Shown here: piece by piece, positions 1-27,362 of the stretch | Numbering within the stretch: the first letter of the stretch is position 1 | How the letters are laid out: each line of letters starts with the position of its first letter | Source: a bacterium | GTDB taxonomy: Bacteria; Sysuimicrobiota; Sysuimicrobiia; Sysuimicrobiales; Humicultoraceae | Length of the DNA stretch: 27,362 bases | NCBI GenBank assembly: GCA_041497675.1 | Contig: JBGQGY010000035.1 | Span: 1 to 27,362 of the forward strand | Direction: 5' to 3' | Notes under the pieces: generated by a model | Databases searched by the model: none | What the model saw: the letters and a program-made list of their open reading frames with translations, nothing else | What the model was told of the DNA's origin: nothing | Translations under genes and position numbers: made by a program

Positions 1-740
1 CGTGGTCGCTGTCCGATCTGATGATCGTCGCCGCCGCCCGCATGCTGACCGGCGCATCGACCGTGCTCGTCGGTATCGGGCAGCCGAACGTGGCGGCCAA
101 CCTGGCGCGGCGGGCGCACAATCCCAACGTTGTGCTGATCTATGAGTCGGGCGTCATCGGCGCGCGGCCTGAACGCATGCCGGTCTCCATTGGCGATCCG
201 GCGCTGGTCACGGGCGCGCAGTGCGTGCTGCCGATGATGGATCTCTTCTCGTTCGTGTTGCAGGGCGGGCACATCGACGTTGGATTCTTGGAAGGTGTAC
301 AGATCGACCGTTTCGGCAACATCAACACCACGGTGATCGGCCCGTACGAGCGCCCGACTGTGCGTCTGGCCGGCAGCGGTGGCGCGTGCGAGATCGCCTC
401 GCTGGCGCGGCGCACGATCATCATGGCCAAGCACGAGCGCCGGCGCTTTCCCGAACGCGTCGATTTTGTGACGAGTCCCGGCTATTTGGGTGGGAAAGCC
501 GAGCGGCGGCGGATCGGGCTTGGCGGTGGGCCCGATGCGGTGATCACCGACCTGGCGATCTTGCGCTTCGATGACGTGACGGGCGAGATGTGCCTCGACA
601 CCGTGCATCCCGGCGTGACCGTCGACAAGGTCCTGGCCGAGACCGGGTGGCCGCTTCGTCTTGCGGCGAGGATCGGCGAAACGCCGCCGCCAACCACCGC
701 CGAGTTGCAGGCCCTGAACCAGCTTCGGGGGTTATCGTAA
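1..740 (+). CDS. Family I CoA-transferase beta subunit (glutaconate CoA-transferase GctB-like), probably 5'-truncated by window edge
   Basis: Frame is open from position 3 (WSLSDLMIVAAAR). Motifs VLVGIGQP, IYESG (catalytic Glu position), QIDRFGNINTT, GSGGA, RRFPERVDFVTSPG, VITDLA. Confidence 0.88.
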   Translation, partial: WSLSDLMIVAAARMLTGASTVLVGIGQPNVAANLARRAHNPNVVLIYESGVIGARPERMPVSIGDPALVTGAQCVLPMMDLFSFVLQGGHIDVGFLEGVQIDRFGNINTTVIGPYERPTVRLAGSGGACEIASLARRTIIMAKHERRRFPERVDFVTSPGYLGGKAERRRIGLGGGPDAVITDLAILRFDDVTGEMCLDTVHPGVTVDKVLAETGWPLRLAARIGETPPPTTAELQALNQLRGLS

Positions 741-818
741 GCGTCAGGATCGGAGCGGGGCGCGGGCATCGTTGAGCGCGGCAGGGACTGCAGTATCCGG
801 CGGGTAATCTCTCGCTAC

Positions 819-1754
819 ATGGCCATCCCACACGGTATTTATGCCATCCTGGCGACGCCGTTTACCGACGACGGCGCCATCGATTTTGCCAGCCTCGACC
901 GTCTGGTCGATTTCGAAGTCGCCGCGGGCGTCCACGGCCTGACGATCCTCGGGATCCTCGGCGAGGCGCACAAGCTGACAGAGGATGAACGCGCGCAGGT
1001 CGTCGAGGCGATCATCCGGCGCGTGGGCGGACGGATCCCCATCGTCGTGGGCACCAGCGCGCCGGCCACCGACCTGGCCATCCGGTACAGCCGGCAGGCA
1101 CAGGATCTCGGCGCGACCGCGTTGATGGTGGCGCCGCCGACCAACCTGCGAAACCTCGATGCGGTCCGCGAGTACTACCGGCGCGTGCACGACGCCACGA
1201 CGGTGCCGATCGTGGTGCAGGATGAGCCGGTATTCTCAGGTGTAGTGATGCCGGCCGCGTTTCTCGCGTCGATCACCGACGCGCTGCCGCGGGCCCGGGC
1301 GATCAAGCTGGAGGAAATCCCGACACCGGTGAAGGCCTCCCAGGTCCTGGCGGCGGCAAAACAGCCCGTCGCCGTGTACGGCGGCATGGGTGGAGTGTAT
1401 TTCTATGAAGAACTGCTGCGGGGCGCGGTCGGCACGATGACCGGCTTCGCCTTCCCCGAAGTACTGGTCGCCCTCTATACGGCCTTCACATCGGGCGATC
1501 GCGTGGGCGCCCGCTCGATCTTCTTCCATTACCTACCGCTGATCAGCTATGAAGGTCAGCCGGTCGTCGGCCTGACGCTGCGCAAGGAGATCTTCCGCCG
1601 GCGCGGTATTATCGCGTCGGCCGCGCTCAGACATCCCGGCGCGGCGCTGGACCCCGGCAGCCGCGCTGAACTCGATGACATCCTGGCCGCGCTCGACCTG
1701 GCCCGCTCCGGCACCGCGCCGATCCGCGTCGGCACGGCCGCCGTGCGTTCGTGA
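819..1754 (+). CDS. Dihydrodipicolinate synthase (DHDPS/NAL) family protein, probably a keto-deoxy-acid dehydratase/aldolase rather than true DapA
   Basis: TPFTDDGAID, GVHGL..LG..GE, PIVVG, Schiff-base Lys in AIKLEE. GTTGE is replaced by GILGE and the catalytic Tyr by Gln (VVQD). Confidence 0.85.
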   Translation: MAIPHGIYAILATPFTDDGAIDFASLDRLVDFEVAAGVHGLTILGILGEAHKLTEDERAQVVEAIIRRVGGRIPIVVGTSAPATDLAIRYSRQAQDLGATALMVAPPTNLRNLDAVREYYRRVHDATTVPIVVQDEPVFSGVVMPAAFLASITDALPRARAIKLEEIPTPVKASQVLAAAKQPVAVYGGMGGVYFYEELLRGAVGTMTGFAFPEVLVALYTAFTSGDRVGARSIFFHYLPLISYEGQPVVGLTLRKEIFRRRGIIASAALRHPGAALDPGSRAELDDILAALDLARSGTAPIRVGTAAVRS

Positions 1755-2755
1755 CGCCGCAGACGCCTCCGCATCCCCGCGTTCTCATTACGGTACCCGG
1801 CTTCGGTCGCGCGGGCGCCGCGCCGCTCGAGCGGCTGGCGGCCGCCGGCTGCGTGGTGATCCCGAACCCCAAGGGCATCCGTCTCACCGAAGACGAGGTG
1901 CTTGGCCTCGTGGGTGACGTCGAGGCGATCATTGCCGGCACTGAGCCGCTGACCGCGCGCGTCATCGCGGCGGCCCCGCGGCTGAAGATCATCGCGCGGC
2001 GCGGTGTGGGGTTCGACGCGGTGGATGTCGAGGCGGCGACCGCCAACGGCATTGTCGTGTCAACCACGGTCGGCGTGCTGTCCGACGCCGTCGCGGATCA
2101 TACGTTTGGTTTGCTGTTGGCCGTGGCACGGCAGATCCCGCTGCTCGACCGGACGGTGAAGGCCGGGAGCTGGGACCGCTCGCCGGCCACGGACGTGCAC
2201 GGGAAAACACTGGGCATCATCGGTCTTGGGGCGATCGGCCGGGCCGTGGCCCGCCGCGGCGGGGGATTCGGCATGCGGCTGCTGGCATACGATGTGGCCC
2301 CGGATCACAACGCGGCGGCGGTGCTGGGGGTGACGCTGCGCGATCTGCCCGCCGTGCTGACGGAAAGCGACTTTCTGACCCTGCACGTCCCGCTGTCGCC
2401 TGCGACCCGCCATGTGATCAACGATGCAACGCTGCGGACCATGAAGCCGACGGCGTTCCTGATCAACACCAGTCGCGGCGACGTGGTCGATGAGGCTGCG
2501 CTGCTGCGCGCGCTGCAGCAAGACCGCCTGGCGGGCGCCGGGCTGGATGTGTTTCACGACGAGCCGGTGCGCGATCGGGCGCTGGTTGCCCTCGACCGGG
2601 TGGTCGCCACCCCGCACGTCGCCTCACACACGCGCGAGACGCTGGCGCTAATGGAGCAGTCGTGCGCCGATGCGGTGCTCGCGGTCCTGAACGGGGAACG
2701 CCCCAAGCACGTGGTCAATCCGGAAGCGTACAACCGACGAATGCCAACACGCTGA
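1751..2755 (+). CDS. D-isomer-specific 2-hydroxyacid dehydrogenase (phosphoglycerate dehydrogenase-like)
   Basis: RRGVGFDAVD, GIIGLGAIG (NAD binding), LHVPL, INTSRG, GAGLDVF..EP, TPHVA. GTG start overlaps the upstream TGA (GTGA). Confidence 0.9.
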   Translation: MTPQTPPHPRVLITVPGFGRAGAAPLERLAAAGCVVIPNPKGIRLTEDEVLGLVGDVEAIIAGTEPLTARVIAAAPRLKIIARRGVGFDAVDVEAATANGIVVSTTVGVLSDAVADHTFGLLLAVARQIPLLDRTVKAGSWDRSPATDVHGKTLGIIGLGAIGRAVARRGGGFGMRLLAYDVAPDHNAAAVLGVTLRDLPAVLTESDFLTLHVPLSPATRHVINDATLRTMKPTAFLINTSRGDVVDEAALLRALQQDRLAGAGLDVFHDEPVRDRALVALDRVVATPHVASHTRETLALMEQSCADAVLAVLNGERPKHVVNPEAYNRRMPTR

Positions 2756-2779
2756 ACAAGAAAAGGCGGCCCGGCCCGC

Positions 2780-3820
2780 ATGCCCAAATCCAAACCCGTC
2801 CACGCGATGATCTCAGAGATTCACGAGCAGCCGGCTGTGCTGACCGGCCTGCTGGCCGAGCACGCGACCGCCATCGGCGAGGTGGCCACCGCGCTGCGCC
2901 GGCGCAAGCCCGCGGTGGTCGTCTTCGTGGCACGCGGCACGTCGCACAATGCGGCCATCTACGGACAATACCTGGTCGAGACACTGCTGCGCGTCCCGGC
3001 GAGTTCGGCGATGCCGTCAGTCACCACGCTGTACGGTCGCGCCCCGGACTGGAGCGCCGGCGCCATCATTGCCATCTCCCAGTCGGGTCGCTCCATGGAC
3101 GTGGCCGAGGTCGTCGCCGAGGCACGCCGGCAGGGTGCGCTTACAGTTGCCCTGACGAATGACCCCGCGTCCCCCCTGGCGCAGGGCAGCGCCCATGTGC
3201 TACCGCTTGCGGCCGGCGAAGAGAAGAGCGTCGCGGCGACCAAGACGTTTACGTCATCGCTGGCGGTTCTGGCCACGCTTGTCACCGGGTGGGGACAGCA
3301 CAAAGACCTGGCGCGTGCCCTGCCCCGGCTGCCGGGAGCCGTCTCCGACGTGCTGGCCCAGGAAGCCACGATCAAAGCCCTCGCCAAGCGTCACGCGAAG
3401 CGCGAGCCTTGGGTGGTGACGACGCGGGGTTATATGCTCGGCGTGGCCGACGAAGCGGCGCTCAAGTTGAAGGAGACGTGTTACGCGGCGGCCGACTCGC
3501 TCTCGGCCGCGGAGATGCTGCACGGGCCGATCGCCGCTCTGGACAAACGCAGCACAGTGGTGATCCTGCTGCCGCCCGGCCGCAGCCGCGTGGGGCTCAT
3601 TGATCTCCGCGTCCAGCTGCGCGGCCGGTCGGTTCCCACGCTGACCTTTGCCTTCGGCGACGATCCCGGCGACGTCGCGATCAACTGCGGACTGCCCGAA
3701 TCGCTTGCGCCAATCGCCGCGGCTAGCGCCGTGCACCTCTTCGCGTACCATCTCTCCGTGGCTCGCGGCATCAATCCCGATCACCCGCGCGGATTGCAGA
3801 AGGTGACCGTAACGCGCTAG
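2780..3820 (+). CDS. Double-SIS-domain sugar-phosphate isomerase/deaminase (isomerising glucosamine-6-phosphate deaminase, NagB-II/GlmD type)
   Basis: M..EIHEQP, ARGTS.NAA, ISQSGRS, AGEEKSVAATK, EAALKLKE, HGP, C-terminal PDHPRGLQKVT. No N-terminal glutaminase domain. Confidence 0.85.
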   Translation: MPKSKPVHAMISEIHEQPAVLTGLLAEHATAIGEVATALRRRKPAVVVFVARGTSHNAAIYGQYLVETLLRVPASSAMPSVTTLYGRAPDWSAGAIIAISQSGRSMDVAEVVAEARRQGALTVALTNDPASPLAQGSAHVLPLAAGEEKSVAATKTFTSSLAVLATLVTGWGQHKDLARALPRLPGAVSDVLAQEATIKALAKRHAKREPWVVTTRGYMLGVADEAALKLKETCYAAADSLSAAEMLHGPIAALDKRSTVVILLPPGRSRVGLIDLRVQLRGRSVPTLTFAFGDDPGDVAINCGLPESLAPIAAASAVHLFAYHLSVARGINPDHPRGLQKVTVTR

Positions 3821-15131: not shown

Positions 15132-15902
15132 CTAGAAGTAGTTGGACGTGATCCCGCCGTCGGCCACCATCACCGCGCCGTTTGTCCACGTCGATTCGTC
15201 TGACGCCAGGTAAAGCGCCAAATTCACGATGTCTTCGGGGCGGCCAAAGCGTCCCATCGGGATGCGCGCGAGCCGCAGCGCCTTCGCGTCGGGATTCGTG
15301 AGCAGCCACGAGGTCAGCAGCGGCGTCTCGATCGGCCCGGGGCAGATGGCGTTGGTGCGGATGTTCTTCGAGCCGAACTGCACGGCGAGCGACTTGGTGA
15401 GTGCGATGACCCCACCCTTGCTGGCGGTGTAGGCATCCTGGGGCACGGTGCACCCCACCAGCGCCACGAACGACGCGATGTTGACGATCGACCCGCCGCC
15501 CGCCCGCATGAGCGCCGGGATCCCGTGCTTGCACACCAGGAAGATACTCTTGAGGTTGACGTTCATGACACGATCCCAGATCGCCTCGTCCACGTCGATG
15601 ACCGACCCATCCTCGGCGGGAAAGATGCCGGCGTTGTTGTAGAGCACGTTGACGCGGCCAAAGGCCTGCTCGCCGGCGCGCACGACGGCGGCCACATCGG
15701 CCTCTTTGGACACATCGGTGCGGACAAAGACGGCCTCACCCCCGGCCTTGCGGACCGCCGCCACCGTTTCCTGACCGGGCGGCTCGGCGATTTCGCTGAC
15801 GACGACCTTCGCGCCCTCTTTCGCGAATACCACCGACGCCAGCCGCCCCATCCCGCTGCCCGCGCCGGTGATCAATGCCACTTTGCCCGTGAGACGTCCC
15901 AT
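15132..15902 (-). CDS. Short-chain dehydrogenase/reductase (classical SDR)
   Basis: TGAGSGMG, NNAGI, catalytic S (IASF) and YTASK, ICPGPIETP, DGG; GGAGG RBS upstream. Confidence 0.93.
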   Translation of the reverse strand: MGRLTGKVALITGAGSGMGRLASVVFAKEGAKVVVSEIAEPPGQETVAAVRKAGGEAVFVRTDVSKEADVAAVVRAGEQAFGRVNVLYNNAGIFPAEDGSVIDVDEAIWDRVMNVNLKSIFLVCKHGIPALMRAGGGSIVNIASFVALVGCTVPQDAYTASKGGVIALTKSLAVQFGSKNIRTNAICPGPIETPLLTSWLLTNPDAKALRLARIPMGRFGRPEDIVNLALYLASDESTWTNGAVMVADGGITSNYF

Positions 15903-15926
15903 CGTGATCCCTCCGTGGTCCCGCGC

Positions 15927-17234
15927 TCACAGCGCCAGACCACCGATCAAGCCGGCGACGCCTCCCTTTCGAAAGAGCGCCACCGTCCGATCAGCCGGCA
16001 GTTTCCGGCTCTCGAGCCGCCGGCGAATCGGCAACAAGAAGCGTTCCTCCGCCCGCCCGCGCCGCCGCAGGGCTTCTTCGCACAGATCGACGATCCCCGC
16101 AAGAAACCCCGGGGCAGGTTCGGGCGCGCGCAGACCCAGCCGGATCACCTCGCGGCGATATCCCGCCATGGCCGGCCACGGATCCGATCCCACACGGTCC
16201 TGCACGTATGTCATGACGCTGGGCATCGCCTCAACGAGCGCGAGCGACAGCGCCGCGGCGGCCAGCGGCTCGTCCGGCGGTTGCTGGCAGGCGGGGCGGA
16301 TCTCGATCGTGGCGTTCTTCACGCGGGGTCTCGCGCTGTTCCAGGTGTAGTGCTCGTGCCAGAGAAACATCTCGTAGTCGGATCCGTGCGTCGCCAGGTA
16401 GGCAGTGAACGGCCGGCTGTATTGGACGAAGCGGTGGCCCCGGCGCAGTGAATAACACCGCTGCGCGCACACGAACGCCACGTAGTCCTCGAGGGACGTG
16501 AACCGCCGGGGTGTCATGCCGTGCCGGTGCTCCCCGAGACCCCCAAGCAACCCTTCGCGCCCAGAGACATACTGCCCCACGCGTCCCGCGTAAACCGATG
16601 AGTTCGCGGTCAACGCGATGATCGGCCCCGACACGAGATTCATCACGTTGATCGCGTCAACCAGCTCGCCCCGCGCGACGTCCACCTGCACCTGGTCGCT
16701 GGCCGTCGTGGTGAAGTGCAGCCACGGGCGGCCGATCGCCCGACAGAGCGGAGCGTATCGCCGCTTTGGCGTCATCAATGCCAGGGTCCCACGCGTGCGG
16801 GGCTGGATGCCATACCCCAGCACCCGCATGCCGCGCGATGCCGCGAGCCGGCTCAGACGCGACACCGCCGGCCCCGACAGCGCCTCCAGTTGGTGCAGAT
16901 CATCGGCGGGCGGGAAGACGATCTCGGCCGTGGCCCGTCCGACCTCCACCTCGTAGCCGATCCGCCCCAGGTCGATGCGCACGATCATCCCGCGGCGCGC
17001 CGGATCATCATAGGTGACGTTCTGCCCACCTTCCTCCAGCAGCGGCTCCCAGAGCCGCGAGGTCTCGCCGGCGCGGCCGTCCGGCAGGACCAACGGAAAC
17101 TCGGCCTCGCGCCCGATTTTTCTCGGACCGCGCAGGGACAAAGGAAAATCATTCCTCATCCGCTGCGCCAGACGGTCGATGGCCGCCTGCACGCGTGCGC
17201 TCAGAACGACGGGTAGTTGGACGCGTCCGGGCAC
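15927..17234 (-). CDS. Glutamate-cysteine ligase family 2 (GCS2)-like carboxylate-amine ligase
   Basis: KIGREAEF, EVEVG...E, G.GIQP, TTTASDQVQVD, ALTANS, WNSARPR...TIEIR. Start uncertain (GTG 17234, GTG 17192 or ATG 17159). Confidence 0.78.
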   Translation of the reverse strand: MPGRVQLPVVLSARVQAAIDRLAQRMRNDFPLSLRGPRKIGREAEFPLVLPDGRAGETSRLWEPLLEEGGQNVTYDDPARRGMIVRIDLGRIGYEVEVGRATAEIVFPPADDLHQLEALSGPAVSRLSRLAASRGMRVLGYGIQPRTRGTLALMTPKRRYAPLCRAIGRPWLHFTTTASDQVQVDVARGELVDAINVMNLVSGPIIALTANSSVYAGRVGQYVSGREGLLGGLGEHRHGMTPRRFTSLEDYVAFVCAQRCYSLRRGHRFVQYSRPFTAYLATHGSDYEMFLWHEHYTWNSARPRVKNATIEIRPACQQPPDEPLAAAALSLALVEAMPSVMTYVQDRVGSDPWPAMAGYRREVIRLGLRAPEPAPGFLAGIVDLCEEALRRRGRAEERFLLPIRRRLESRKLPADRTVALFRKGGVAGLIGGLAL

Positions 17235-17860
17235 AGGCGGTACACCCGGTGGCCGATCAGGCGGCCGTCGGCGTCCAGGTGAAACTGGTTCAATTCAAGG
17301 TTGACGATGTCGTCGCGCAGCGACGCGTAAGGATCCAGCCCGCGCAGCTCGCCGTGCAGTTGCTGCATGAAGTTCTGGTGAGACGAGACGAGCACGCGCT
17401 TGCCCCGGTGCGCGCCGAGGGTCCGAGTGAGGAACGCGCGCGCCCGGGCCCGCAACGTCTCGAACGACTCGCCGCCCGGTGGGTTGAGCGAGTACCGGAC
17501 GTGTTCGATCGGCAGGTAGATCACGGATGGAAACTTCTCACGAATCTCGTCCTGGGTCAGCCCTTCCATCTCGCCGAAGCTGCGTTCGATGGCCAGATCG
17601 TCGATGAGCATCTGCTCGCGCGTCCAGCCGGTGACGATCTCGGCCGTCTCGATCGCGCGGCGTAGGCTGGACGCGATCACCACGTCGATCGGCGTCCCGT
17701 CGAAGTTGCCGCGGGCGTCCTGGGCCTGCTGACGGCCCACGTCGAGCAAGGGGGCATCGAGCCGGCCCCCGGTGCGTTTCGAGCGGTTGAGCTCGGTGAG
17801 CCCGTGTCGCAGCGTATAGAGCAGCGTCTGGCCGGGAGCAAGAACGGGTTGATCGATCAT
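17201..17860 (-). CDS. Histidine phosphatase (phosphoglycerate mutase) family protein
   Basis: LRHGLTELN, SSLRRAIETA, ERSFGEMEG, PPGGES, LVSSH. Confidence 0.9.
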   Translation of the reverse strand: MIDQPVLAPGQTLLYTLRHGLTELNRSKRTGGRLDAPLLDVGRQQAQDARGNFDGTPIDVVIASSLRRAIETAEIVTGWTREQMLIDDLAIERSFGEMEGLTQDEIREKFPSVIYLPIEHVRYSLNPPGGESFETLRARARAFLTRTLGAHRGKRVLVSSHQNFMQQLHGELRGLDPYASLRDDIVNLELNQFHLDADGRLIGHRVYRLCPDASNYPSF

Positions 17861-19825: not shown

Positions 19826-21184
19826 CTATCCTTCCACTTCCGTCAGCGACGCGTCCAAGATGTCCAGGGCGCGGTCCATCTCGTCGCGCGTGACCACCAG
19901 CGGGGGGCTCAGCAGGATGACGTTGCCCATCGTCAGTTTGAAGCTCAACCCTTTCGACAACGCGCAGTACATCACGGTTTCGGCCTGCGCCGTCGCGCGG
20001 GCGCGTGTGACGCGGTCGGTCACGAGCTCGATTCCCAAGAGCAGCCCCAGGCCTCTCACGTCACCGATCAACGGGTGCCGGTCTTTCATCGCGGTGAGAC
20101 GATCGAGGGCGTATCGGCCCAGATCTCGCGCGTGCGCCAGGAGCCCGTGTTGTTCGATGTAGCGGATCGTGGCGAGCGCCGCGGCAGCGGCGACCGGGTT
20201 TTTCTCGTGCGTATAGTGGCCCAGCGCCATCTCACCGGCGACGTCGAACCGCTCACGGGCGATCAGCGCCGCCAGAGGGAAGACCCCTCCGCCCAGACCC
20301 TTTCCGAGGACCAGCATGTCCGGGACGACGCCGTAGTGCTCGCAGGCGAACATCGCGCCCGTCCGCCCCAACGCCGTGGGAATCTCATCGAGAATCAACA
20401 ACGCGTTGTGTCGGTCACACGCGCGCCGGACGACCTGCCAATAGTCGCGCGACGGGATCACCGGGACGCTTCGCACCGTCTCGGCCACAACCGCCGCGAC
20501 GTCGCCTTCCTGTTCCAGCACGTATTCGATGTGCGACGCGCACTTGAGGTCGCACCCGCCCCGGTGATGACAATCCCACTGGCACCGATAGGGATCCGGC
20601 GGCGGCACGTGTTCTGCGCCCGGCATAAGCGGGCCCATGTCGCGCCGGAACAGCTCCTCTCCCCCGACGGAAATCGCGTCGAGCGAGGCGCCGTGAAACG
20701 AATCCCACATGGAGATGGTCTTGTACCGGCCGGTGACGACGCGAGCGAGCTTCAGCGCCATGCCAATGGCGCCGGTCCCGCTGGGACACAACAAGACTTT
20801 GTTGAGATCGCCCGGTGCCAGTTCGACGAGTGTTCTGGCCAGGTCCACGGCGACCCGATTCGTGTAACGGCGTGGGCTGAAGGACAACTCGTCGAGCTGC
20901 GTCTTGATGGCCGCCAGGACGTCGGGATTCCCGAACCCGACCTGATGCACGCTGTTGCCGTGGAAGTCCATGTAGCGGCGGCCCTGGAGGTCTTCGATGA
21001 AGATCCCGTCGCACCGCCGCAACGCGTTCAGACACGGCGTCGACAGCGACTGGTGGAGGAAGTAGCGCGCATCGTCCTCGAGCAGCGCGCGCGTCTGACC
21101 ATCGAGCGCGGCCGCCTGCCAGGCGGCGCGCTGAGCAGACACGTTGACGTCGCCCTCGGACTGCGTGCGCGGAGTCTCGCTCAT
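19826..21184 (-). CDS. pbfA: (R)-1-hydroxy-2-aminoethylphosphonate ammonia-lyase (class III aminotransferase fold, PLP)
   Basis: Motifs I recognise from Pbf[58 protein letters not shown] Lys in [17 protein letters not shown]. An aepX homologue lies about 5 kb away. Confidence 0.88.
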
Positions 21185-22113
21185 GCAGACCTTGGTGGTT
21201 CCCGCCGCTGCGCGAAACTCCTGCCCGCGCGATGCCTCTCCGGTATCGCGGCCAGAAAGGCCGCCAGCAGAGGAGAGAGCACGCGGTCGGCGTGGTAGAC
21301 GAGCGCGAAATCCAGGCTGAGCGGCTCGCGCAGCCGGCGGCCGATCAGGCGGCCGGCGGCGAGTTCCTGCGCGACCGCGGCGTGGGCCATGATCGCGACC
21401 CCAAGACCGTCGGCCACCGCGCTCTTGATCGCCTCGTTGCTTTCCAATTCCATCGATGGCTCCGCGCTGAGGCCGTGCGCCTGAAACGCCTGCTCGATCA
21501 GGCGCCGCGTGGTGGAGCCGGGCTCGCGCAGAATCAGCGGGGACCCGCGGAGATCCTGGATCGACACGATCGACTTTCGCGCGAGGCGGTGATCGGGCGG
21601 GAGCACAACCAGCATCCGGTCGCGGATCAACGGCCGGGAGATCAAGTGTGGATCATCCGGCCGGCCGGCGATGAGGCCAGCGTGCAGCGTAAAGTCCACG
21701 ATGCCGGTCAGGATCATCTGCGAGTTGCCTACCGACAGGCTGACTTTGACCCCAGGGTACCGGCGCTTGAAACGGTCGAGCAGGTCGGATACGTAGTAGG
21801 CGCCAGCCGTGCGGCTGGCGCCTATTTTGAGGTGCCCCGTCTGCAGAGCCGCCGCACCCTCCAGCGCGTCACGAGCGGCATCCACCAAATGGAAGATGCG
21901 CCCGGCAAACGCCTCCAGGGTCTGTCCGGCCTCGGTCAGGGCCAGCCGCCGGCCGTTCCGGTGGAAGAGTTTCAGCCCGACCGCCTGCTCCAGACGGCGA
22001 ATCTGCTGCGTGACCGCGGGCTGGGTGATCCCGAGCGCGCGCGCAGCCTTGTTGACACCCTGGTGGCTCACCACCTGATGAAATGTTCTCAACGGAACGA
22101 GTAGTATGTCCAT
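21181..22113 (-). CDS. LysR-family transcriptional regulator, probable aminophosphonate-responsive activator
   Basis: HTH AARALGITQPAVTQQIRRLE, LTEAG, LKIGAS, REPGSTTR, SNEAIKSAV..GLG. Stop overlaps the pbfA start (ATGA). ATG 22113 is preferred over 22131. Confidence 0.93.
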   Translation of the reverse strand: MDILLVPLRTFHQVVSHQGVNKAARALGITQPAVTQQIRRLEQAVGLKLFHRNGRRLALTEAGQTLEAFAGRIFHLVDAARDALEGAAALQTGHLKIGASRTAGAYYVSDLLDRFKRRYPGVKVSLSVGNSQMILTGIVDFTLHAGLIAGRPDDPHLISRPLIRDRMLVVLPPDHRLARKSIVSIQDLRGSPLILREPGSTTRRLIEQAFQAHGLSAEPSMELESNEAIKSAVADGLGVAIMAHAAVAQELAAGRLIGRRLREPLSLDFALVYHADRVLSPLLAAFLAAIPERHRAGRSFAQRREPPRSA

Positions 22114-22123
22114 GTGCGAAAAG

Positions 22124-22140
22124 CATAACATGATTTTATG
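22124..22140. promoter_or_regulatory. LysR-type recognition site CATAA-N7-TTATG (T-N11-A)
   Basis: Perfect 5-bp dyad in the divergent intergenic region. It overlaps the putative lysR -10 (TATGCT, minus strand 22127-22122) and lies 21 nt upstream of the TTGACA of the divergent promoter. Confidence 0.75.
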
Positions 22141-22161: not shown

Positions 22162-22191
22162 TTGACATTATGAAACGCGACGTCCGATAAT
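22162..22191 (+). promoter_or_regulatory. Sigma70-type promoter TTGACA-N18-GATAAT for the CoA-transferase operon, likely leaderless
   Basis: TTGACA 22162-22167, GATAAT 22186-22191, in-frame ATG at 22199 with no SD sequence. Confidence 0.7.
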
Positions 22192-22198
22192 GCTCGTG

Positions 22199-23116
22199 AT
22201 GCCTCCTAACAAGGTCATGACCGCCGCCGAGGCGGTCGCGCGCTTCGTCCATCCGGGCAACGTACTCGGGATGGGTGGACAGAACATCGGCCGCTGCCCG
22301 ATGGCCCTCACCCACGAGATCATCCGCCAGCGCGTCGGGGGCCTGACCGTGGTGGGTTGTAACCTCTCCCTGTCGATGGATCAACTCGCCGCGGCCGGTC
22401 TCATCCGGCGGACCGAGTGCGGCACGGGCAACCTGGAGCGATTTGGGACGACGTTCAGCTGGCGCCGGGGCATCGAAAACGGCACGATCGAGATCGAGGA
22501 CTACAGCCACCTGGCGATGGTCAGCCGTTTCCTGGCCGGCGAGATGGGTCTCCCGTTCATGCCGGTACGCAGCCTGCTTGGGTCGGATATCCTGTGGGCC
22601 CCGGACGGCGCGCCGAAGCCCGGCAAGGCCGTCATCACCGAGAACCCGTGGGATCCGGCCGAGCGTGTGGTGCTGGTCCGGGCGCTGCAGCCGGACGTGT
22701 CGATCGTCCACGCGCAACGCGCCGATGCGGTCGGGAACGTCATCATCGAAGGGTTCGCGACGCACGAGCCGGAGATGATGCGCGCGTCCCAGCACGTGAT
22801 CGTCTCGTGCGAAGAGTTGGTCACGACCGACGAGATCCGCGCGCACCCCGAACGCACGACCATCCCGTTCATGTACGTTCACGCAGTCGTTGTCCAGCGG
22901 TACGGTGCGTTTCCGACGTCAACGTACGCCTACTACGACTACGACGGCGGCCAGATCGGCGCGTATCAAGACGCCGCCCGGACCGGGTCGCCGGCGATCG
23001 ACGAGTACCTGCGGCGTCACGTCTGGGGATGCGGCACGTTCGACGACCACCTCCATCTGGCCACGGACGCCGATCGCCTCACGACCCTCACCCATGCGAT
23101 GCAGGAGTTGATGTGA
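22199..23116 (+). CDS. Family I CoA-transferase alpha subunit (GctA-like)
   Basis: KVMTAAEAVARFV..G, R.PMAL.HEIIRQ, EDYSH, AGEMGLPFMP.RSLLGSD, PDVSIVHAQRAD..GN, VIVSCEE, GAFPT. Confidence 0.9.
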   Translation: MPPNKVMTAAEAVARFVHPGNVLGMGGQNIGRCPMALTHEIIRQRVGGLTVVGCNLSLSMDQLAAAGLIRRTECGTGNLERFGTTFSWRRGIENGTIEIEDYSHLAMVSRFLAGEMGLPFMPVRSLLGSDILWAPDGAPKPGKAVITENPWDPAERVVLVRALQPDVSIVHAQRADAVGNVIIEGFATHEPEMMRASQHVIVSCEELVTTDEIRAHPERTTIPFMYVHAVVVQRYGAFPTSTYAYYDYDGGQIGAYQDAARTGSPAIDEYLRRHVWGCGTFDDHLHLATDADRLTTLTHAMQELM

Positions 23117-23931
23117 TGTCGCGCGAGACGCCGCACCTTGCGCCGTTTTCCCGTCAGGAGCTGATGGTGATCGAAGCGGCCCGGCAGCTGCGGGACGGCG
23201 ACATCGTGTTCGTCGGCACCGGTCTGCCGATGCTGGCGACCACCCTGGCCCAACGCACGCACGCGCCCGACGTGGTCATGGTCATCGAAAGCGGCGTCAT
23301 CGCGCCCCAGGTGCGTCCAACGCCGATCTCGGTTTCGGACCCCAAAGCCATGTACCGGGCGATGAAGCTCGGCACGCTGCGCGAGGTCCTGGGGTGTCTG
23401 CTGCAGCGCGGGTTGATCGACGTGGGCTTTGTCGGCGGCGCTCAGATCGACCGGTATGCCAACATCAACTCGACGCAGATCGGGCCCCCCGGCGCGATGA
23501 AACGGCGGCTGCCTGGGAGCGGCGGCGCGAACGACATGGCGTCGCACTGCCGGCGTCTGCTGATCATCACCCACCACGAGAAGCGGCGCTTCCCCGAGCG
23601 GTGCGATTACGTCACCAGCCCAGGGTTTCTCGATGGACCCGGCGGCCGCGCGCGCGTCGGATTGAACCCGGACTTCGCTGTGACCGTCGTGACCGATCTC
23701 GCCGTGATGGAGAACGACCCGCGCACCTGCGCGCTGCGCATCGTCCGGCTCATGCCCGGCATCACGGTTGAGGACGTGCGTGCCGAAACCGGGTTCCGCC
23801 CCGACGTGGCGCCGGATCTTCGCGAGGTCCCTCCGCCGGACGCGGAGGTGTTGGACAGGCTCCGGCACGACGTGGATCCGGGGCGCGTATATCTGAAATC
23901 GGAAGACGCCGTACCAACGGCCGGGAGGTAA
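23116..23931 (+). CDS. Family I CoA-transferase beta subunit (GctB-like)
   Basis: ATG overlaps the alpha-subunit stop (TGATG) with a GGAG RBS; VFVGTGLP, IESG (catalytic Glu retained), GGAQIDRYANINST, GSGGAND, VTSPG. Confidence 0.9.
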   Translation: MSRETPHLAPFSRQELMVIEAARQLRDGDIVFVGTGLPMLATTLAQRTHAPDVVMVIESGVIAPQVRPTPISVSDPKAMYRAMKLGTLREVLGCLLQRGLIDVGFVGGAQIDRYANINSTQIGPPGAMKRRLPGSGGANDMASHCRRLLIITHHEKRRFPERCDYVTSPGFLDGPGGRARVGLNPDFAVTVVTDLAVMENDPRTCALRIVRLMPGITVEDVRAETGFRPDVAPDLREVPPPDAEVLDRLRHDVDPGRVYLKSEDAVPTAGR

Positions 23932-23934
23932 CCA

Positions 23935-24789
23935 ATGGACGCGAAGGCCGTGAAAGAACGCGAGCCGTTTCACTGGCAGACATCGATCGCCTACAAGAAC
24001 AAGGACAAGATCGTCGTCCGCGGCTACGACAACAACGACCTCACGGGCAACGTGACGTTCACCGAGATGGCCTACCTGGTCTGGCGGGGCGACCTGCCGC
24101 CGGCGAACCACGCCCGCATGCTTGACGCGCTGCTGGTCAGCATGGCCGAGCACGCGTTCTCACCGTCGTCGGCCGCCTGCCGCTTTGTCGCGTCGGGCGG
24201 GGTGCCCCTCCACGTCGGTGTGGCGGGCGGGATGCTGGCCATCGGCTCGCTGCACGGCACGGCCGACCGCCCGGCGCAACTCTTCACAGACGCGGTCGAG
24301 CGGATGCGGACGGACGGTCTGACCATGCCGGAAGCGGCGTACAAGGTCGCGGGAGAAGCGCGCGCCGCGGGCCGCCGCCTGCCCGGGTACCACCACGCGC
24401 AGCACATCATCGACCCACGGACGGCGCGCATACTGGGGTTGTCCGACGAGTACGGCATCTCGGGCGCGTACGTCGCGATGGCCAGAGCCATCGAGGCCGC
24501 CACGGAGGAGTTCTGGGGGCGGCGGATCTACCTCAACGGCCCAGGGGCCATGGGCGCGGTCTGCCTGGACATGGGGTTTGACGTGGAACTGATCAAGGGT
24601 GTGTTCTTGCTGTCGCGCACCGTCTCGCTGATCGCGCACACGTACGAAGAGATGCACCGAGAGAAGGGCTGGCGGGCGTCGACCAACTCGCCTATTGTCC
24701 AACCCCTGGATCTGTCGTTGCAGAAGCCGGAATTCTACGACGGGCCGCGCGACCGCCCGCTGCCGAAGTCGCAGGGCGGCGGACGGTGA
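23935..24789 (+). CDS. Short citrate-synthase-family / citryl-CoA-lyase-like protein with altered active site
   Basis: W.TSI......I.VRGY...DL.G N-terminus, L...G.LP, AEH..SPS, G.LHG, LPGYHH..H..DPR, LNGPGA, SR...L.AH..EE; GGAGG RBS. Confidence 0.82.
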   Translation: MDAKAVKEREPFHWQTSIAYKNKDKIVVRGYDNNDLTGNVTFTEMAYLVWRGDLPPANHARMLDALLVSMAEHAFSPSSAACRFVASGGVPLHVGVAGGMLAIGSLHGTADRPAQLFTDAVERMRTDGLTMPEAAYKVAGEARAAGRRLPGYHHAQHIIDPRTARILGLSDEYGISGAYVAMARAIEAATEEFWGRRIYLNGPGAMGAVCLDMGFDVELIKGVFLLSRTVSLIAHTYEEMHREKGWRASTNSPIVQPLDLSLQKPEFYDGPRDRPLPKSQGGGR

Positions 24790-26249
24790 GCGCGCGCGCG
24801 GCGCTGCTCGAAGGGATCCCGCAGGGCCTGTTCATCGGCGGGCGGTGGGAAGAGAGTCGATCCGGCCGCACGATCCCAACCCACAATCCGGCAACCGGCG
24901 AACTCCTCGCGCAGGTGCCGCTTGCAGACGCGGCGGACGTCGATCGCGCTGTCCAGGCGGCCGCTGCCGCGTTCCCCGCGTGGTCGGAGATGCCCGGCCC
25001 GCAGCGGGGAGAGCGCCTCCGCGCGGTGGCGGCTGCGCTCCGCGAGCACCGTGAGGCGCTGGCGCATCTCGACGCCGTCAACTCAGGCAACATCATCGCC
25101 GGGATGCGCCGCGACGTCGATTGGGCCATCGACTCCCTCGAATACTTCGCCGGGCTCATCCCCGAGATCAAAGGCGAGACGCTCCCGTCGGACGCCGCCC
25201 TCTTCCACTATACGGTGCGTGAACCGTTCGGCGTCGTCGCCAAGATCAATCCTTACAACCACCCGGTGCGGTTCGCCGCCGAAAAGCTGGCGGCCCCGCT
25301 GGCGGCCGGCAACACCGTTGTGATGAAGCCACCGGAGCAGGCGCCCCTCTCGTCGCTGGTGCTCGGGCGGCTGCTGCAGACGATTCTCCCGCCCGGCGTG
25401 GTGAACATCGTCACCGGTGACGGGCCGACCACCGGCGCCTCGCTCGTCCACCACCCGCTCGTGCGGCGCATCGCGCTCATCGGATCGGTCGAAGCCGGGC
25501 GCGCGGTCATGCGCGCGGCCAGCGACGACCTCAAGACCGTGACGCTCGAACTGGGCGGCAAGAACCCACTCATCTTGTTCCCCGACGTCGACCCTGCCGA
25601 GGCCGCTGACGCGGCCGTCGGCGCCATGAACCTCAACCGTGCCGGCCAATCGTGCAGCAGCACGTCGCGCGTGTTTGTGCACCGCCACCTGCACGACGCG
25701 TTCGTCGAGGCGCTGCTGGCCCGGCTGCGAAACCTGCGGGTCGGGCTGCCGGACGCCGACGACAGCCAGATGGGCTGTCTGATCTCGAGGGAACAGCACG
25801 AGAAGGTGCTGTCGTACATTGAGGCAGGCAAGCGCGAGGGCGCGCGGCTGCTCTTCGGCGGCGGCGTGCCCGATGACCCGGGGCTGCGGCGGGGGTTTTT
25901 CGTCCAGCCCACGTTGTTTGACGGCGTGCGGCCGGAGATGAAGATCGCGCAAGAAGAGATCTTTGGCCCGGTGATCAGCCTCCTGACATGGGACGATGAG
26001 GAGGAGATGCTCCGTCAGGTGAACAGCGTGATCTACGGCCTGAGCGCAGCAGTATACACTCATGACTATGCGAAGGCCCACCGGATCGCGCGGCGGATCG
26101 AGGCGGGGTATATCTGGGTGAACATCCCCGGCGGCCACGTGCTGGGTTCACCCTACGGCGGCATCAAGCAGAGCGGCATCGGCCGGGAAGAGTGCCTGGA
26201 CGAACTGTTGTCCTACACGCAAGTCAAGAGCGTCCGGATGCGGCTGTAG
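24786..26249 (+). CDS. NAD(P)-dependent aldehyde dehydrogenase, PhdK-like subfamily; candidate phosphonoacetaldehyde dehydrogenase
   Basis: REPFGVV, PYNHP, KPPEQAP, IALIGS, LELGGKNP (Glu), GQSCSSTSR (Cys), EEIFGPV, PYGGIKQSGIGRE; GTGA overlap with the upstream gene. Confidence 0.93.
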   Translation: MSARAALLEGIPQGLFIGGRWEESRSGRTIPTHNPATGELLAQVPLADAADVDRAVQAAAAAFPAWSEMPGPQRGERLRAVAAALREHREALAHLDAVNSGNIIAGMRRDVDWAIDSLEYFAGLIPEIKGETLPSDAALFHYTVREPFGVVAKINPYNHPVRFAAEKLAAPLAAGNTVVMKPPEQAPLSSLVLGRLLQTILPPGVVNIVTGDGPTTGASLVHHPLVRRIALIGSVEAGRAVMRAASDDLKTVTLELGGKNPLILFPDVDPAEAADAAVGAMNLNRAGQSCSSTSRVFVHRHLHDAFVEALLARLRNLRVGLPDADDSQMGCLISREQHEKVLSYIEAGKREGARLLFGGGVPDDPGLRRGFFVQPTLFDGVRPEMKIAQEEIFGPVISLLTWDDEEEMLRQVNSVIYGLSAAVYTHDYAKAHRIARRIEAGYIWVNIPGGHVLGSPYGGIKQSGIGREECLDELLSYTQVKSVRMRL

Positions 26250-26310
26250 CAAGGGTTTGGGGCACGGCCGGGGAAATACTGCGCGGAACGCCCACATGAG
26301 GGGGTGCGCT

Positions 26311-27362
26311 ATGCCGCAAGGCGTGAAAGCGACAGGCAAGTTGGCAGTGGCCCTGGTGGCCATTGTGATCCTCGCGATAGGTTTGGCTCCCCAGGCTATC
26401 GCTCAGGCGCCGACGCGATTGACCGTCTACACCGCCATTGAGAATGACCAGTTAGGCTACTTCAAGTCGTCGTTCGAGGCGGACACCCCCGGGGTCATCA
26501 TCGACTGGGTGCGTGACTCGACCGGGGTCATCACGGCCCGCATCCTCGCCGAGCGGGCAAACCCCCGCGCCGACGCCATCTGGGGACTGGCCGTCACCAG
26601 CCTGTTGATCTTCGAAGACCAGAACATGCTCCAGCCGTACACACCTCGAGGCGCGGATGCTCTCAAACCCGCGTTCCGCGACAGCAAGAACCCCATGAAC
26701 TGGACGGGTATGGACGCCTTCCTGTCTGTGATCTGCTACAACACCGTGGAGGCGAAAAAGCGGGGTCTGCGCGCCCCCTTCTCCTGGCAAGACCTGCTCA
26801 GCCCTGCCTACAAGGGACGGATCGTGATGCCCAACCCGGCATCGTCCGGTACCGGTTATCTCACGATCGCGGCGTGGCTGCAGATGATGGGTGAGCAGAA
26901 GGGTTGGGCGTTTATGGACAAGATCCACGAGAACATCGGTATCTACCTCCACTCCGGCTCGGCGCCGTGCGTGCGGGCGGCGCAGGGGGAGTTCTCGATG
27001 GGCATCGGGTTCGACGGGCGCGGCGCGCTCCTGAAGCAGCAGGGGGCGCCGATCGAAGTCATCATTCCGAAGGAAGGCGCCGGCTGGGACATGGAGGCGA
27101 CCGGCATCATCCGCGGGACGCGCAACCTGGCGGCCGCGCAGCGCCTGGCGGACTTTGCGGTCAGCCGCAAGGCCAACGAGATATACAACGGCGTCGGCGG
27201 GCCGGACCGGACGTCGTACGCGATCGTGGCGCTGCCCGGCATGACCAATGTGCCGCCTTTCTACCCACCGAACGCTGAGAAACAGATGTTCAAGAACGAC
27301 TTCGCGTGGATGGCGAAGAATCGGGACCGCATCCTCCAGGAGTGGGCAAAGCGCTACGACGC
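26311..27362 (+). CDS. aepX: 2-aminoethylphosphonate ABC transporter substrate-binding protein (AepX), 3'-truncated by window edge
   Basis: Not in the ORF track because it has no stop in the window; translated by hand from ATG 26311. Signal peptide, then LTVYTAIE, WVRDSTGVITARILAE, ADAIWGLA, WTGMDA, MPNPASSGTG, YLHSGSAPC, GWDMEA, KNDFAWMAKNRDRILQEWAKRYD. Confidence 0.9.
   Translation, partial: MPQGVKATGKLAVALVAIVILAIGLAPQAIAQAPTRLTVYTAIENDQLGYFKSSFEADTPGVIIDWVRDSTGVITARILAERANPRADAIWGLAVTSLLIFEDQNMLQPYTPRGADALKPAFRDSKNPMNWTGMDAFLSVICYNTVEAKKRGLRAPFSWQDLLSPAYKGRIVMPNPASSGTGYLTIAAWLQMMGEQKGWAFMDKIHENIGIYLHSGSAPCVRAAQGEFSMGIGFDGRGALLKQQGAPIEVIIPKEGAGWDMEATGIIRGTRNLAAAQRLADFAVSRKANEIYNGVGGPDRTSYAIVALPGMTNVPPFYPPNAEKQMFKNDFAWMAKNRDRILQEWAKRYD

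Follow-up and report, generated by a model that had tools for sequence, protein, structure and literature searches.

The window analysed here is the whole of contig JBGQGY010000035.1 (27,362 nucleotides; GenBank assembly GCA_041497675.1), from a bacterium of the Humicultoraceae in the phylum Sysuimicrobiota. An uninterrupted open reading frame (ORF) at positions 23935-24789 of its forward strand encodes a 284-residue protein related to citryl-CoA lyase (CCL), in which the catalytic aspartate of the citrate-synthase family is missing. From sequence comparisons we propose that this CCL-like protein is probably a carbon-phosphorus (C-P) hydrolase, converting phosphonoacetyl-coenzyme A (phosphonoacetyl-CoA) to acetyl-CoA and phosphate. 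The initial annotation had singled it out as the best candidate for such an activity, and the idea has gained from three observations: neighbouring enzymes that would form the thioester by two routes, operons that include the phosphonate genes PhnW and PbfA, and a complementary distribution with respect to PhnA.

Active site of the CCL-like protein

The gene and the three motifs discussed below are the following.

23935..24789, + strand: CCL-like protein without the catalytic Asp, proposed phosphonoacetyl-CoA C-P hydrolase (PF00285; 6hxp; AlphaFold2 and Foldseek)
24253..24264, + strand: H107-G-T-A, H107 aligning with the His of citrate synthase LHGGA (alignments)
24388..24405, + strand: Y152-H153-H154-A-Q156-H157, clade signature HHxQH where the family has G-H (alignments; 87 of 87 clade members)
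24535..24549, + strand: N201-G-P203-G-A replacing the family's N-V-D-G-A, Asp to Pro (alignments; Asp in 0 of 87 clade members)

The protein matched Pfam PF00285 over residues 58-247 (1.5e-30, 106.9 bits, cut-off 27), which places it in the citrate synthase/citryl-CoA lyase superfamily; no models outside the citrate-synthase family matched in the profile search. The best matches were the NCBIfam citryl-CoA lyase models (PRK06224; EC 4.1.3.34), all six of which scored under the curated cut-off (222.5 vs 245, 207.9 vs 212, 190.8 vs 193, the rest lower). The nearest solved structure is 6hxp, the citryl-CoA lyase of Hydrogenobacter thermophilus (phmmer 3.3e-40). An AlphaFold2 model built from a 100-sequence alignment had a mean pLDDT of 93.8 and a pTM of 0.90, and a Foldseek search with this model returned 6hxp on top (2.3e-17, TM 0.75/0.83), followed by the citryl-CoA-lyase modules of ATP-citrate lyases (ACLY). 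No succinyl-CoA-synthetase-like gene, which could have provided a citryl-CoA synthetase partner, was present among the scanned ORFs of the window, the rest of the genome not having been searched.

The residue numbers and DNA positions given by the initial annotation proved exact throughout, as judged from the translation and the DNA read-out. Positions 24535-24549 read AAC GGC CCA GGG GCC, encoding N201-G202-P203-G-A, and H13-W14, E72-H73, H107-G-T-A, D160-P-R162 and R228 were likewise found in place. In the HMMER alignment with 6hxp, LNVDGA stands over LNGPGA, PGYGH over PGYHH and HGGA over HGTA; two alignments with citrate synthases also put P203 under the Asp of NVD. H107, H154, R162 and R228 align with the two catalytic His and the substrate-binding Arg residues (DPR and S/P-R motifs) of CCL and citrate synthase. 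In these enzymes the oxaloacetate or citryl part of the substrate is held by the His of DH/EH, the His of GxGH, the Arg of DPR and the Arg of S/P-R, whose counterparts here are H73, H154, R162 and R228, while the His of LHGGA, equivalent to H107, is the residue that we take to stabilise the enolate. The missing Asp, which in citrate synthase and CCL acts as acid/base for the acetyl-CoA enolate, presumably corresponds to D1026 of ACLY. As stated in an excerpt of PMC10115795, acetyl-CoA was formed by wild-type ACLY and not by ACLY-D1026A.

Family variation was assessed by aligning the protein of the window with representatives of clusters at 50% identity; of the best 150, the 132 with at least 220 residues were used. 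Clade variation was assessed in 99 loci, 19 from species genomes and 80 from metagenomes, which yielded 87 unique sequences of at least 230 residues sharing 44-95% identity. Loci, genomes and contigs are designated below by L, G and C numbers, respectively.

The Asp column is occupied by Asp in 82 family representatives and by other residues in 50. Since so many representatives are without it, Asp loss alone is common in this short citrate-synthase-like family, and it was dropped as a distinguishing feature. The replacement of Gly-His by His-His is rare, occurring in five of the 132 representatives, all five of which lack the Asp. At the column of H153 the family has Gly in 124 of 132 representatives, making this His specific to the clade; Q156, invariant in the clade, is variable across the family. 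Of the His residues pointed out by the initial annotation, H153 is an extra and clade-specific one; E72-H73, H154 and H157, like DPR and R228, are ordinary for the family. In particular, E72-H73 was discarded as an oddity because Glu precedes the same His in canonical representatives and in citrate synthases.

Within the clade, H73, H107, H153, H154, Q156, H157, R162 and R228 are invariant in 87 of 87 sequences. Position 203 is never Asp: it is Pro in 55, Val in 14, Ala in 9 and Ser in 9. With 0 of 87 unique homologues bearing Asp at the column, the change is not due to chance or to a sequencing error. Position 202 varies as well (G, A, V, I or D), the Asp belonging to L094, the one sequence with Asp at that position. 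With residues 202 and 203 both variable, NGPG was abandoned as a clade motif; the initial annotation had asked whether NGPG/GYHH defines a clade restricted to phosphonate loci, and HHxQH is all that stays constant. Further marks are an N-terminal REPFHW and a C-terminal QPLDL..YDGP tail. The protein of the window combines HHxQH, absence of Asp from N-x-x-G and the QPLDL..YDGP tail, which are the features by which we delimit the proposed family.

Lacking the catalytic Asp and scoring under the model cut-offs, the protein should not be filed as a citryl-CoA lyase; together with the phosphonate context described below, these traits led us to reject a normal citryl-CoA lyase. As far as sequence comparison can tell, the view of the initial annotation that this is no ordinary citrate synthase or lyase holds, the Asp being absent clade-wide and the best CCL score reaching 222.5 against a cut-off of 245.

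In a quick tree (FastTree, SH-like support), the 87 locus sequences and that of the window form one group apart from the Asp-bearing representatives (support 92). The group comprises a transferase-linked superclade of 54 rows that includes the window sequence (support 85, with three starred subclades), a clade of 18 rows linked to acylating dehydrogenases (support 100) and a clade of 15 rows with neither CoA-forming neighbour (support 99). The sister group, joined to the HHxQH clade with support 97, consists of five representatives that have Leu or Ile where the Asp would be. A member of this sister group, encoded in L118 (G012 contig C7, 5674-11082), is 38% identical to the protein of the window; it carries Ile at the Asp site, and Gly-Gln where the HHxQH clade has His-His. 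G012 is a genome of the same family as that of the window, and the gene is flanked by those for an acylating dehydrogenase, which shares 69% identity with its counterpart in L018, PbfA and a LysR regulator. Because of this setting, the phosphonate link extends beyond the HHxQH clade. An overlapping 190-residue ORF beside the L118 gene, considered as a second citrate-synthase-like paralogue, shows no similarity (E 0.64).

Loss of a catalytic residue raises the question of whether the protein is an enzyme at all. It could be a non-catalytic CoA-binding accessory, that is, a degenerate module regulating or scaffolding the transferase or dehydrogenase, or an acyl-CoA sensor; the frequent loss of Asp in the family would be in keeping with such a role. 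An excerpt of PMC10115795 argues that the citrate-synthase-homology module of ACLY is allosteric and CoA-binding and not essential for catalysis. Against this stands the invariance of H73, H107, H153, H154, Q156, R162 and R228 in 87 of 87 members down to 44% identity, a pattern that fits an active site under selection. Moreover, the protein occurs with two unrelated partner enzymes, and without its activity the pathway in the carrier genomes would have no C-P cleaving step. We regard an accessory role as very unlikely. Retention of the fold and of the pocket residues despite the loss of Asp in all 87 members would rather count in favour of C-P hydrolysis.

Thioester-forming neighbours and the missing C-P step

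Gene neighbourhoods were surveyed by tblastn with reference proteins from the collected loci, within the fetched flanks; counts refer to the 36 unique loci for which each flank measured 2 kb or more.

An enzyme that forms CoA esters adjoins the CCL-like gene in 31 of the 36 loci. In 24 it is a CoA-transferase pair directly upstream, and in seven an acylating dehydrogenase directly downstream. NGPG-type homologues do not lie mostly outside phosphonate contexts, which the initial annotation had named as a finding that would speak against its idea. A phosphonate marker was found within the flanks in 20 of the 36 loci, and two loci (L074 and L092) had neither kind of neighbour. On the longer contigs the order is PbfA, then a LysR gene divergent from CoA-transferase alpha and beta, the CCL-like gene, an aldehyde dehydrogenase, PhnS2, PhnT2, PhnU2 and PhnW, the full S2-T2-U2-PhnW order being found in L005, L014, L042, L044 and L052. 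In a clade 48% identical to the protein of the window, a CoA-acylating aldehyde dehydrogenase replaces the CoA-transferase, again with PhnW and PbfA. L104 and L111 have GntR, a PgtP-like MFS gene, PhnW (487.3, cut-off 400.8), PbfA (711.5, cut-off 525), a HemL-like PLP enzyme, the CCL-like gene and the acylating dehydrogenase, in this order. L018, L106, L113 and L116 have in addition an alcohol dehydrogenase that is HpnZ-like, with scores of 326.8 and 313 for the model named "putative phosphonate catabolism associated" (cut-off 328.1), and L101 has both a transferase and an acylating dehydrogenase. Since the transferase and acylating-dehydrogenase clades share the CCL-like gene, two unrelated routes to the phosphonoacetyl thioester accompany one protein. 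Three entry enzymes, we infer, feed phosphonoacetaldehyde into these two routes.

The distribution of known C-P cleaving enzymes points in the same direction. From phosphonoacetaldehyde, the known routes onward are PhnX, or PhnY and PhnA. According to excerpts of PMC12366243, PhnW and PbfA both yield phosphonoacetaldehyde. The genome from which the window comes (98.6% complete, 272 contigs) gave a best PhnX score of 45.6 bits, against a cut-off of 220, and no matches to PhnA or PhnJ. Among five other carrier genomes, of unstated completeness, none had PhnX and none had PhnA over the cut-off. The PhnA search gave clear matches in related genomes; for PhnX, the controls do not show the sensitivity of the search since no true PhnX occurs in any of the 14 control genomes.

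Ninety-four genomes of the phylum, including that of the window and the unpublished G022 and G029, were surveyed. The CCL-like protein was present in 26, at 76% identity or more in 23 and at 36-39% in three. PhnA exceeded its cut-off in 12 genomes, all from two genera of one family, and PhnX in none of the 94, with two matches below the cut-off (178 and 173 bits). PhnW was over its cut-off in 13 genomes, and PbfA was found at E <= 1e-130 in 28, in 27 of them over the cut-off. The 29 genomes with PhnW or PbfA split into 21 with the CCL-like protein, six with PhnA, none with both and two with neither, the latter being G025, with a PhnX-like match below the cut-off, and G059. Leaving out G022 and G029 makes this 27 genomes, split 19, 6, 0 and 2. 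PhnW or PbfA was present in 21 of the 26 carriers of the CCL-like protein as opposed to eight of the 68 non-carriers, and PhnA never coexisted with it (0 of 94 genomes; 0 of 26 carriers). Altogether, this is the pattern that would be expected of a non-orthologous displacement of PhnA. CCL-like loci were found in records labelled Armatimonadota, Bacillota, Spirochaetota and Latescibacterota, from uncultured soil and sediment lineages.

In the window, the CCL-like gene (listed above) is surrounded by the following genes.

19826..21184, - strand: PbfA (NF049939 716.7, cut-off 525)
21181..22131, - strand: divergent LysR regulator, nearest to the LysR model of aminoethylphosphonate catabolism, kept in relatives (TIGR03339 233.6, under the cut-off of 341.1)
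22190..23116, + strand: CoA-transferase alpha, glutaconate type (Pfam CoA_trans 6.6e-29; 1poi_A 4.9e-43)
23116..23931, + strand: CoA-transferase beta, ESG glutamate conserved (Pfam CoA_trans 1.8e-26; 1poi_B 5.5e-51, "vESG" aligned)
24786..26249, + strand: NAD(P)-dependent aldehyde dehydrogenase, betaine-aldehyde type, proposed to oxidise phosphonoacetaldehyde to phosphonoacetate (Pfam Aldedh 2.8e-158)
26257..27360, + strand: PhnS2, binding protein of a 2-aminoethylphosphonate-type ABC importer, ending at the contig edge (TIGR03261 447.8, cut-off 392.75)

The four enzyme genes (alpha, beta, CCL-like and aldehyde dehydrogenase) are translationally coupled. The beta gene starts at ATG 23116, with AGGAG upstream, or at GTG 23113, and overlaps the alpha stop codon (TGA, 23114-23116). 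The ATG of the CCL-like gene follows the beta stop by four bases and has GGAGG 7 nt upstream, while its TGA overlaps the GTG start of the dehydrogenase gene (GTGA). The closest solved relative of the CoA-transferase is glutaconate CoA-transferase (1poi), an enzyme that presumably uses acetyl-CoA as donor.

At the start of another contig of this assembly, C116, lies a PhnS2 98% identical to that of the window. It is followed, after an unscanned stretch where relatives carry PhnT2, by PhnU2 (808 bits) and PhnW (493.4, cut-off 400.8); in all likelihood this contig continues the operon or represents a strain variant of it. The two PhnS2 copies (26257-27360 in the window, 10288-11412 in L037) lie at contig ends of one assembly, which points to strain heterogeneity as the cause of the break within the operon. 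Beside PhnW in L037 (G000 contig C116; 25-1923 and 3856-6306, both + strand) are two proteins with a GcvT-type aminomethyltransferase domain, one of which (816 residues) is fused to an FAD amine-oxidase-like domain as in dimethylglycine and sarcosine dehydrogenases. A possible role for the two is the tetrahydrofolate-dependent demethylation of N-methylated aminoethylphosphonates.

Upstream of PbfA (15132-17860, - strand), the window carries an SDR gene, a GCS2-family carboxylate-amine ligase gene and a gene of the histidine-phosphatase superfamily. This trio has the same order in L005 and L042 and is partial in L048, L052 and L014; in another type of locus a glutamine-synthetase-like ligase occupies the corresponding place. 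At the start of the window (21-3820, + strand) are a second CoA-transferase beta-like gene, cut by the window edge, a DapA-family aldolase/synthase, a D-2-hydroxyacid dehydrogenase and a SIS protein, which form a separate small cluster unrelated to the CCL-like gene.

Proposed reaction, rival readings and points against it

The phosphonate hydrolases known to us all depend on a beta-carbonyl as electron sink. Carboxylates serve this purpose poorly, hence the need of PhnA for metal ions, and thioesters serve it well. As a leaving group, the thioester enolate is far superior to the acetate dianion, and the active sites of citrate synthases are made for stabilising such an enolate.

We thus envisage the following scheme. 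PhnW, PbfA or, in some relatives, the HpnZ-like alcohol dehydrogenase would produce phosphonoacetaldehyde, which the aldehyde dehydrogenase of the window operon would turn into phosphonoacetate. The glutaconate-type CoA-transferase would then move CoA from acetyl-CoA onto phosphonoacetate; in the second clade, the CoA-acylating aldehyde dehydrogenase would give the phosphonoacetyl thioester in one step. The citrate-synthase-fold site would break the C-P bond of this thioester much as the C-C bond of citryl-CoA is broken by a lyase. The phosphonate would sit in the retained oxaloacetate/anion pocket (H73, H154, R162 and R228), extended by H153 and Q156. H107 would stabilise the departing acetyl-CoA enolate, and the phosphoryl group would be taken up by water or a His. 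In a bolder variant, the phosphoryl group might pass through a phospho-histidine on the HH motif; the initial annotation had already considered a phospho-His intermediate, as well as metal binding, and both stay speculative. With the transferase, the net cycle would be phosphonoacetate plus water to acetate plus phosphate, with no ATP spent and, because the cycle regenerates acetyl-CoA, with only catalytic CoA needed.

A variant of this chemistry would account at once for a dispensable base and for the retention of every oxaloacetate-binding residue of citrate synthase. Here, C-P cleavage would yield an enolate that attacks oxaloacetate or glyoxylate in a dephosphonylative Claisen condensation, giving citryl-CoA or malyl-CoA and phosphate, with the transferase recycling CoA; decarboxylative condensations of malonyl thioesters offer an analogy. 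The acylating-dehydrogenase clade, however, is usually without a CoA-transferase to free CoA from the product, and citrate synthase also relies on the Asp when hydrolysing its thioester. Being less parsimonious than simple hydrolysis as well, the condensation appears very improbable indeed.

Citrate synthases hydrolyse citryl-CoA in the same site, and the protein could accordingly be imagined as a thioesterase releasing free acid and CoA from phosphonoacetyl-CoA or another acyl-CoA; combined with an acylating dehydrogenase, this would amount to a PhnY-type oxidation. Combined with a CoA-transferase it would instead create a futile cycle burning acetyl-CoA, and in either case phosphonoacetate would be left without PhnA, absent as it is from the 26 carriers in the phylum and from the five other carrier genomes. 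We find this the least credible of the readings, and extremely improbable.

With the same fold and chemistry, the substrate could be sulfoacetyl-CoA (giving acetyl-CoA and sulfite), malonyl-CoA (decarboxylation), another phosphonate CoA ester, or several X-CH2-CO-SCoA compounds depending on the clade. Two enzymes leave room for this. The acylating dehydrogenase of the 48% clade has as its best model the sulfoacetaldehyde dehydrogenase SauS (490.3 and 493.4 bits), and the aldehyde dehydrogenase of the window is not PhnY-like: it is of the betaine-aldehyde type, scoring 487 with the BADH model (cut-off 668.6) and 256.5 with the PhnY model (cut-off 635.65), so that it is not a PhnY orthologue. 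In several close loci, moreover, a glutamine-synthetase-like ligase and a class-III aminotransferase of the PRK06062 family replace the Phn importer and PhnW, a combination that would also suit the catabolism of other omega-amines. On the other side, the SauS matches stay under the cut-off of 600, and the same type of dehydrogenase occurs in operons with PhnW and PbfA over their cut-offs. The type-B loci L046, L055 and L057 keep PbfA at 76-77% identity within 8 kb. The complementarity with PhnA is specific to phosphonoacetate, and the neighbourhoods scanned contained no genes for sulfite handling and none for malonate. Another acyl-CoA as the substrate is, on balance, unlikely. As to the PRK06062 aminotransferases themselves (551-606 bits, cut-off 472; 36-39% identical to PbfA), they directly follow the CCL-like gene or the aldehyde dehydrogenase gene in L007, L012, L013 and L011, and might serve as an alternative aminophosphonate transaminase or lyase.

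Several observations nevertheless weigh against C-P hydrolysis as the function of the clade. The enolate left by C-P cleavage must be protonated, a task that belongs to the missing Asp, and the loss of this Asp is itself frequent in the wider family. The His pair may not be essential, considering that Gly-Gln stands there in the sister clade, whose gene setting is similar. The resemblance of the acylating dehydrogenase to SauS and the betaine-aldehyde type of the window's dehydrogenase belong here as well, as do five close loci (L007, L012, L051, L059 and L060) with no phosphonate marker within the fetched flanks. Furthermore, the phyletic pattern is clustered by genus and so reflects few independent events.

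To these must be added the 15-sequence subclade (motifs N-[AG]-P-G and RH[AG]S), which has no CoA-transferase or acylating dehydrogenase nearby. In L015-L017 and L078, L015 being cut short, its genes face a HAD hydrolase of the beta-phosphoglucomutase type and a HisC-like aminotransferase, followed in L016, L017/L066 and L078 by a class II aldolase, a PhnF-like GntR regulator and a PhnS2/T2/U2-like importer. L070 and L074 have a nitrilase-family gene alongside and no phosphonate marker. In L088 (2166-3479) and L092 (8908-13128), the CCL-like gene is immediately upstream of a PEP mutase fused to a cytidylyltransferase, in the company of phosphonopyruvate decarboxylase-like genes; L092 then has a thiamine-diphosphate enzyme, a nucleotidyltransferase and an Fe-alcohol dehydrogenase. 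The setting of these two loci is one of phosphonate biosynthesis, not degradation. An excerpt of PMC8942020 describes phosphonopyruvate as an oxaloacetate analogue. Members of this subclade may have another function.

In the Spirochaetota-labelled L016 and L017 (8808-16553, - strand) and in L078, the operon comprising importer, aldolase, HisC and HAD genes is convergent with the CCL-like gene. This operon may represent an undescribed phosphonate pathway.

Comparison with known systems

Phosphonates are a large pool of organic phosphorus, for which a handful of C-P-cleaving enzymes are known. In the literature searched, from which subscription journals were mostly absent, no description was found of CoA-dependent C-P cleavage or of the present gene set; term look-ups in PMC10574752, PMC8154272, PMC12366243, PMC10590968 and PMC8942020 were included. 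The term phosphonoacetyl-CoA occurred there solely in passages, available as excerpts, on a biosynthetic enzyme that failed to make this compound, and the main text of the 2023 review PMC10574752 contains no CoA, thioester or citrate-synthase term.

On the present evidence, the HHxQH clade would, with fair probability, constitute a new class of C-P-cleaving enzymes, without precedent both in having a CoA thioester as electron sink and in being built on the citrate-synthase fold. 2-Aminoethylphosphonate, hydroxy-aminoethylphosphonate and hydroxyethylphosphonate would thereby have a third hydrolytic route, which replaces PhnA and PhnX and leads via phosphonoacetaldehyde and phosphonoacetyl-CoA to acetyl-CoA and phosphate. 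What appears to be new is a functional clade of the citrate-synthase fold along with a thioester-activated ending of hydrolytic phosphonate pathways. If this is true, gene surveys based on phnX, phnA, phnZ and phnJ overlook an entire route, which occurs in roughly one in four genomes of one phylum (26 of 94) as well as in three or more further lineages. The citrate-synthase active site would have been re-used for C-P chemistry, acetyl-CoA would be obtained straight from a phosphonate, and operons in which PhnW or PbfA have no downstream enzyme would be accounted for.

The nearest structural relatives are the citryl-CoA lyase Ccl (6hxp) and the ACLY modules (6qcl, 6hxl and 6z2h). Like the protein of the window, they have a short citrate-synthase fold with pocket His and Arg residues; an acyl-CoA is the expected substrate in both cases, and the proposed reaction would also free an acetyl-CoA enolate. 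The clade differs from citryl-CoA lyase in the replacement of Asp by Pro, Val, Ala or Ser, in the extra His before the conserved one, in the fixed Gln, in HGT for HGG and in the C-terminal tail. It differs also in its phosphonate-catabolism context and in the bond that would be broken, C-P rather than C-C.

In terms of pathway position, the counterparts are PhnA, PhnX and phosphonopyruvate hydrolase, since the CCL-like protein is likewise proposed to act last, after PhnW or PbfA. In these enzymes, as in the proposed reaction, a beta-carbonyl electron sink enables C-P cleavage. Their folds are those of the alkaline-phosphatase, HAD and PEP-mutase superfamilies, respectively, and to our knowledge none of them uses a CoA thioester. 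When compared with models of these three superfamilies, the protein of the window showed no membership, only citrate-synthase-family models being matched.

The proposed cycle also recalls those of citrate lyase and malonate decarboxylase, where the substrate acid takes the place of the acetyl group in a thioester, the substrate so activated is cleaved, and the acetyl thioester forms again with no ATP spent. Those systems rely on a dedicated acyl carrier protein and on unrelated catalytic subunits, and they cleave C-C bonds, whereas free CoA, a glutaconate-type transferase and an enzyme of the citrate-synthase fold are envisaged here.

The closest pathway is phnWYA (PhnW, PhnY and PhnA), along with its PbfA-extended variants, as outlined in an excerpt of PMC12366243. 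The route of the window resembles it in its entry through PhnW and PbfA, both over their cut-offs, and in the oxidation of phosphonoacetaldehyde. It departs from it in having neither PhnA nor a PhnY orthologue; in PhnA's place stand the CoA-transferase and the CCL-like protein.

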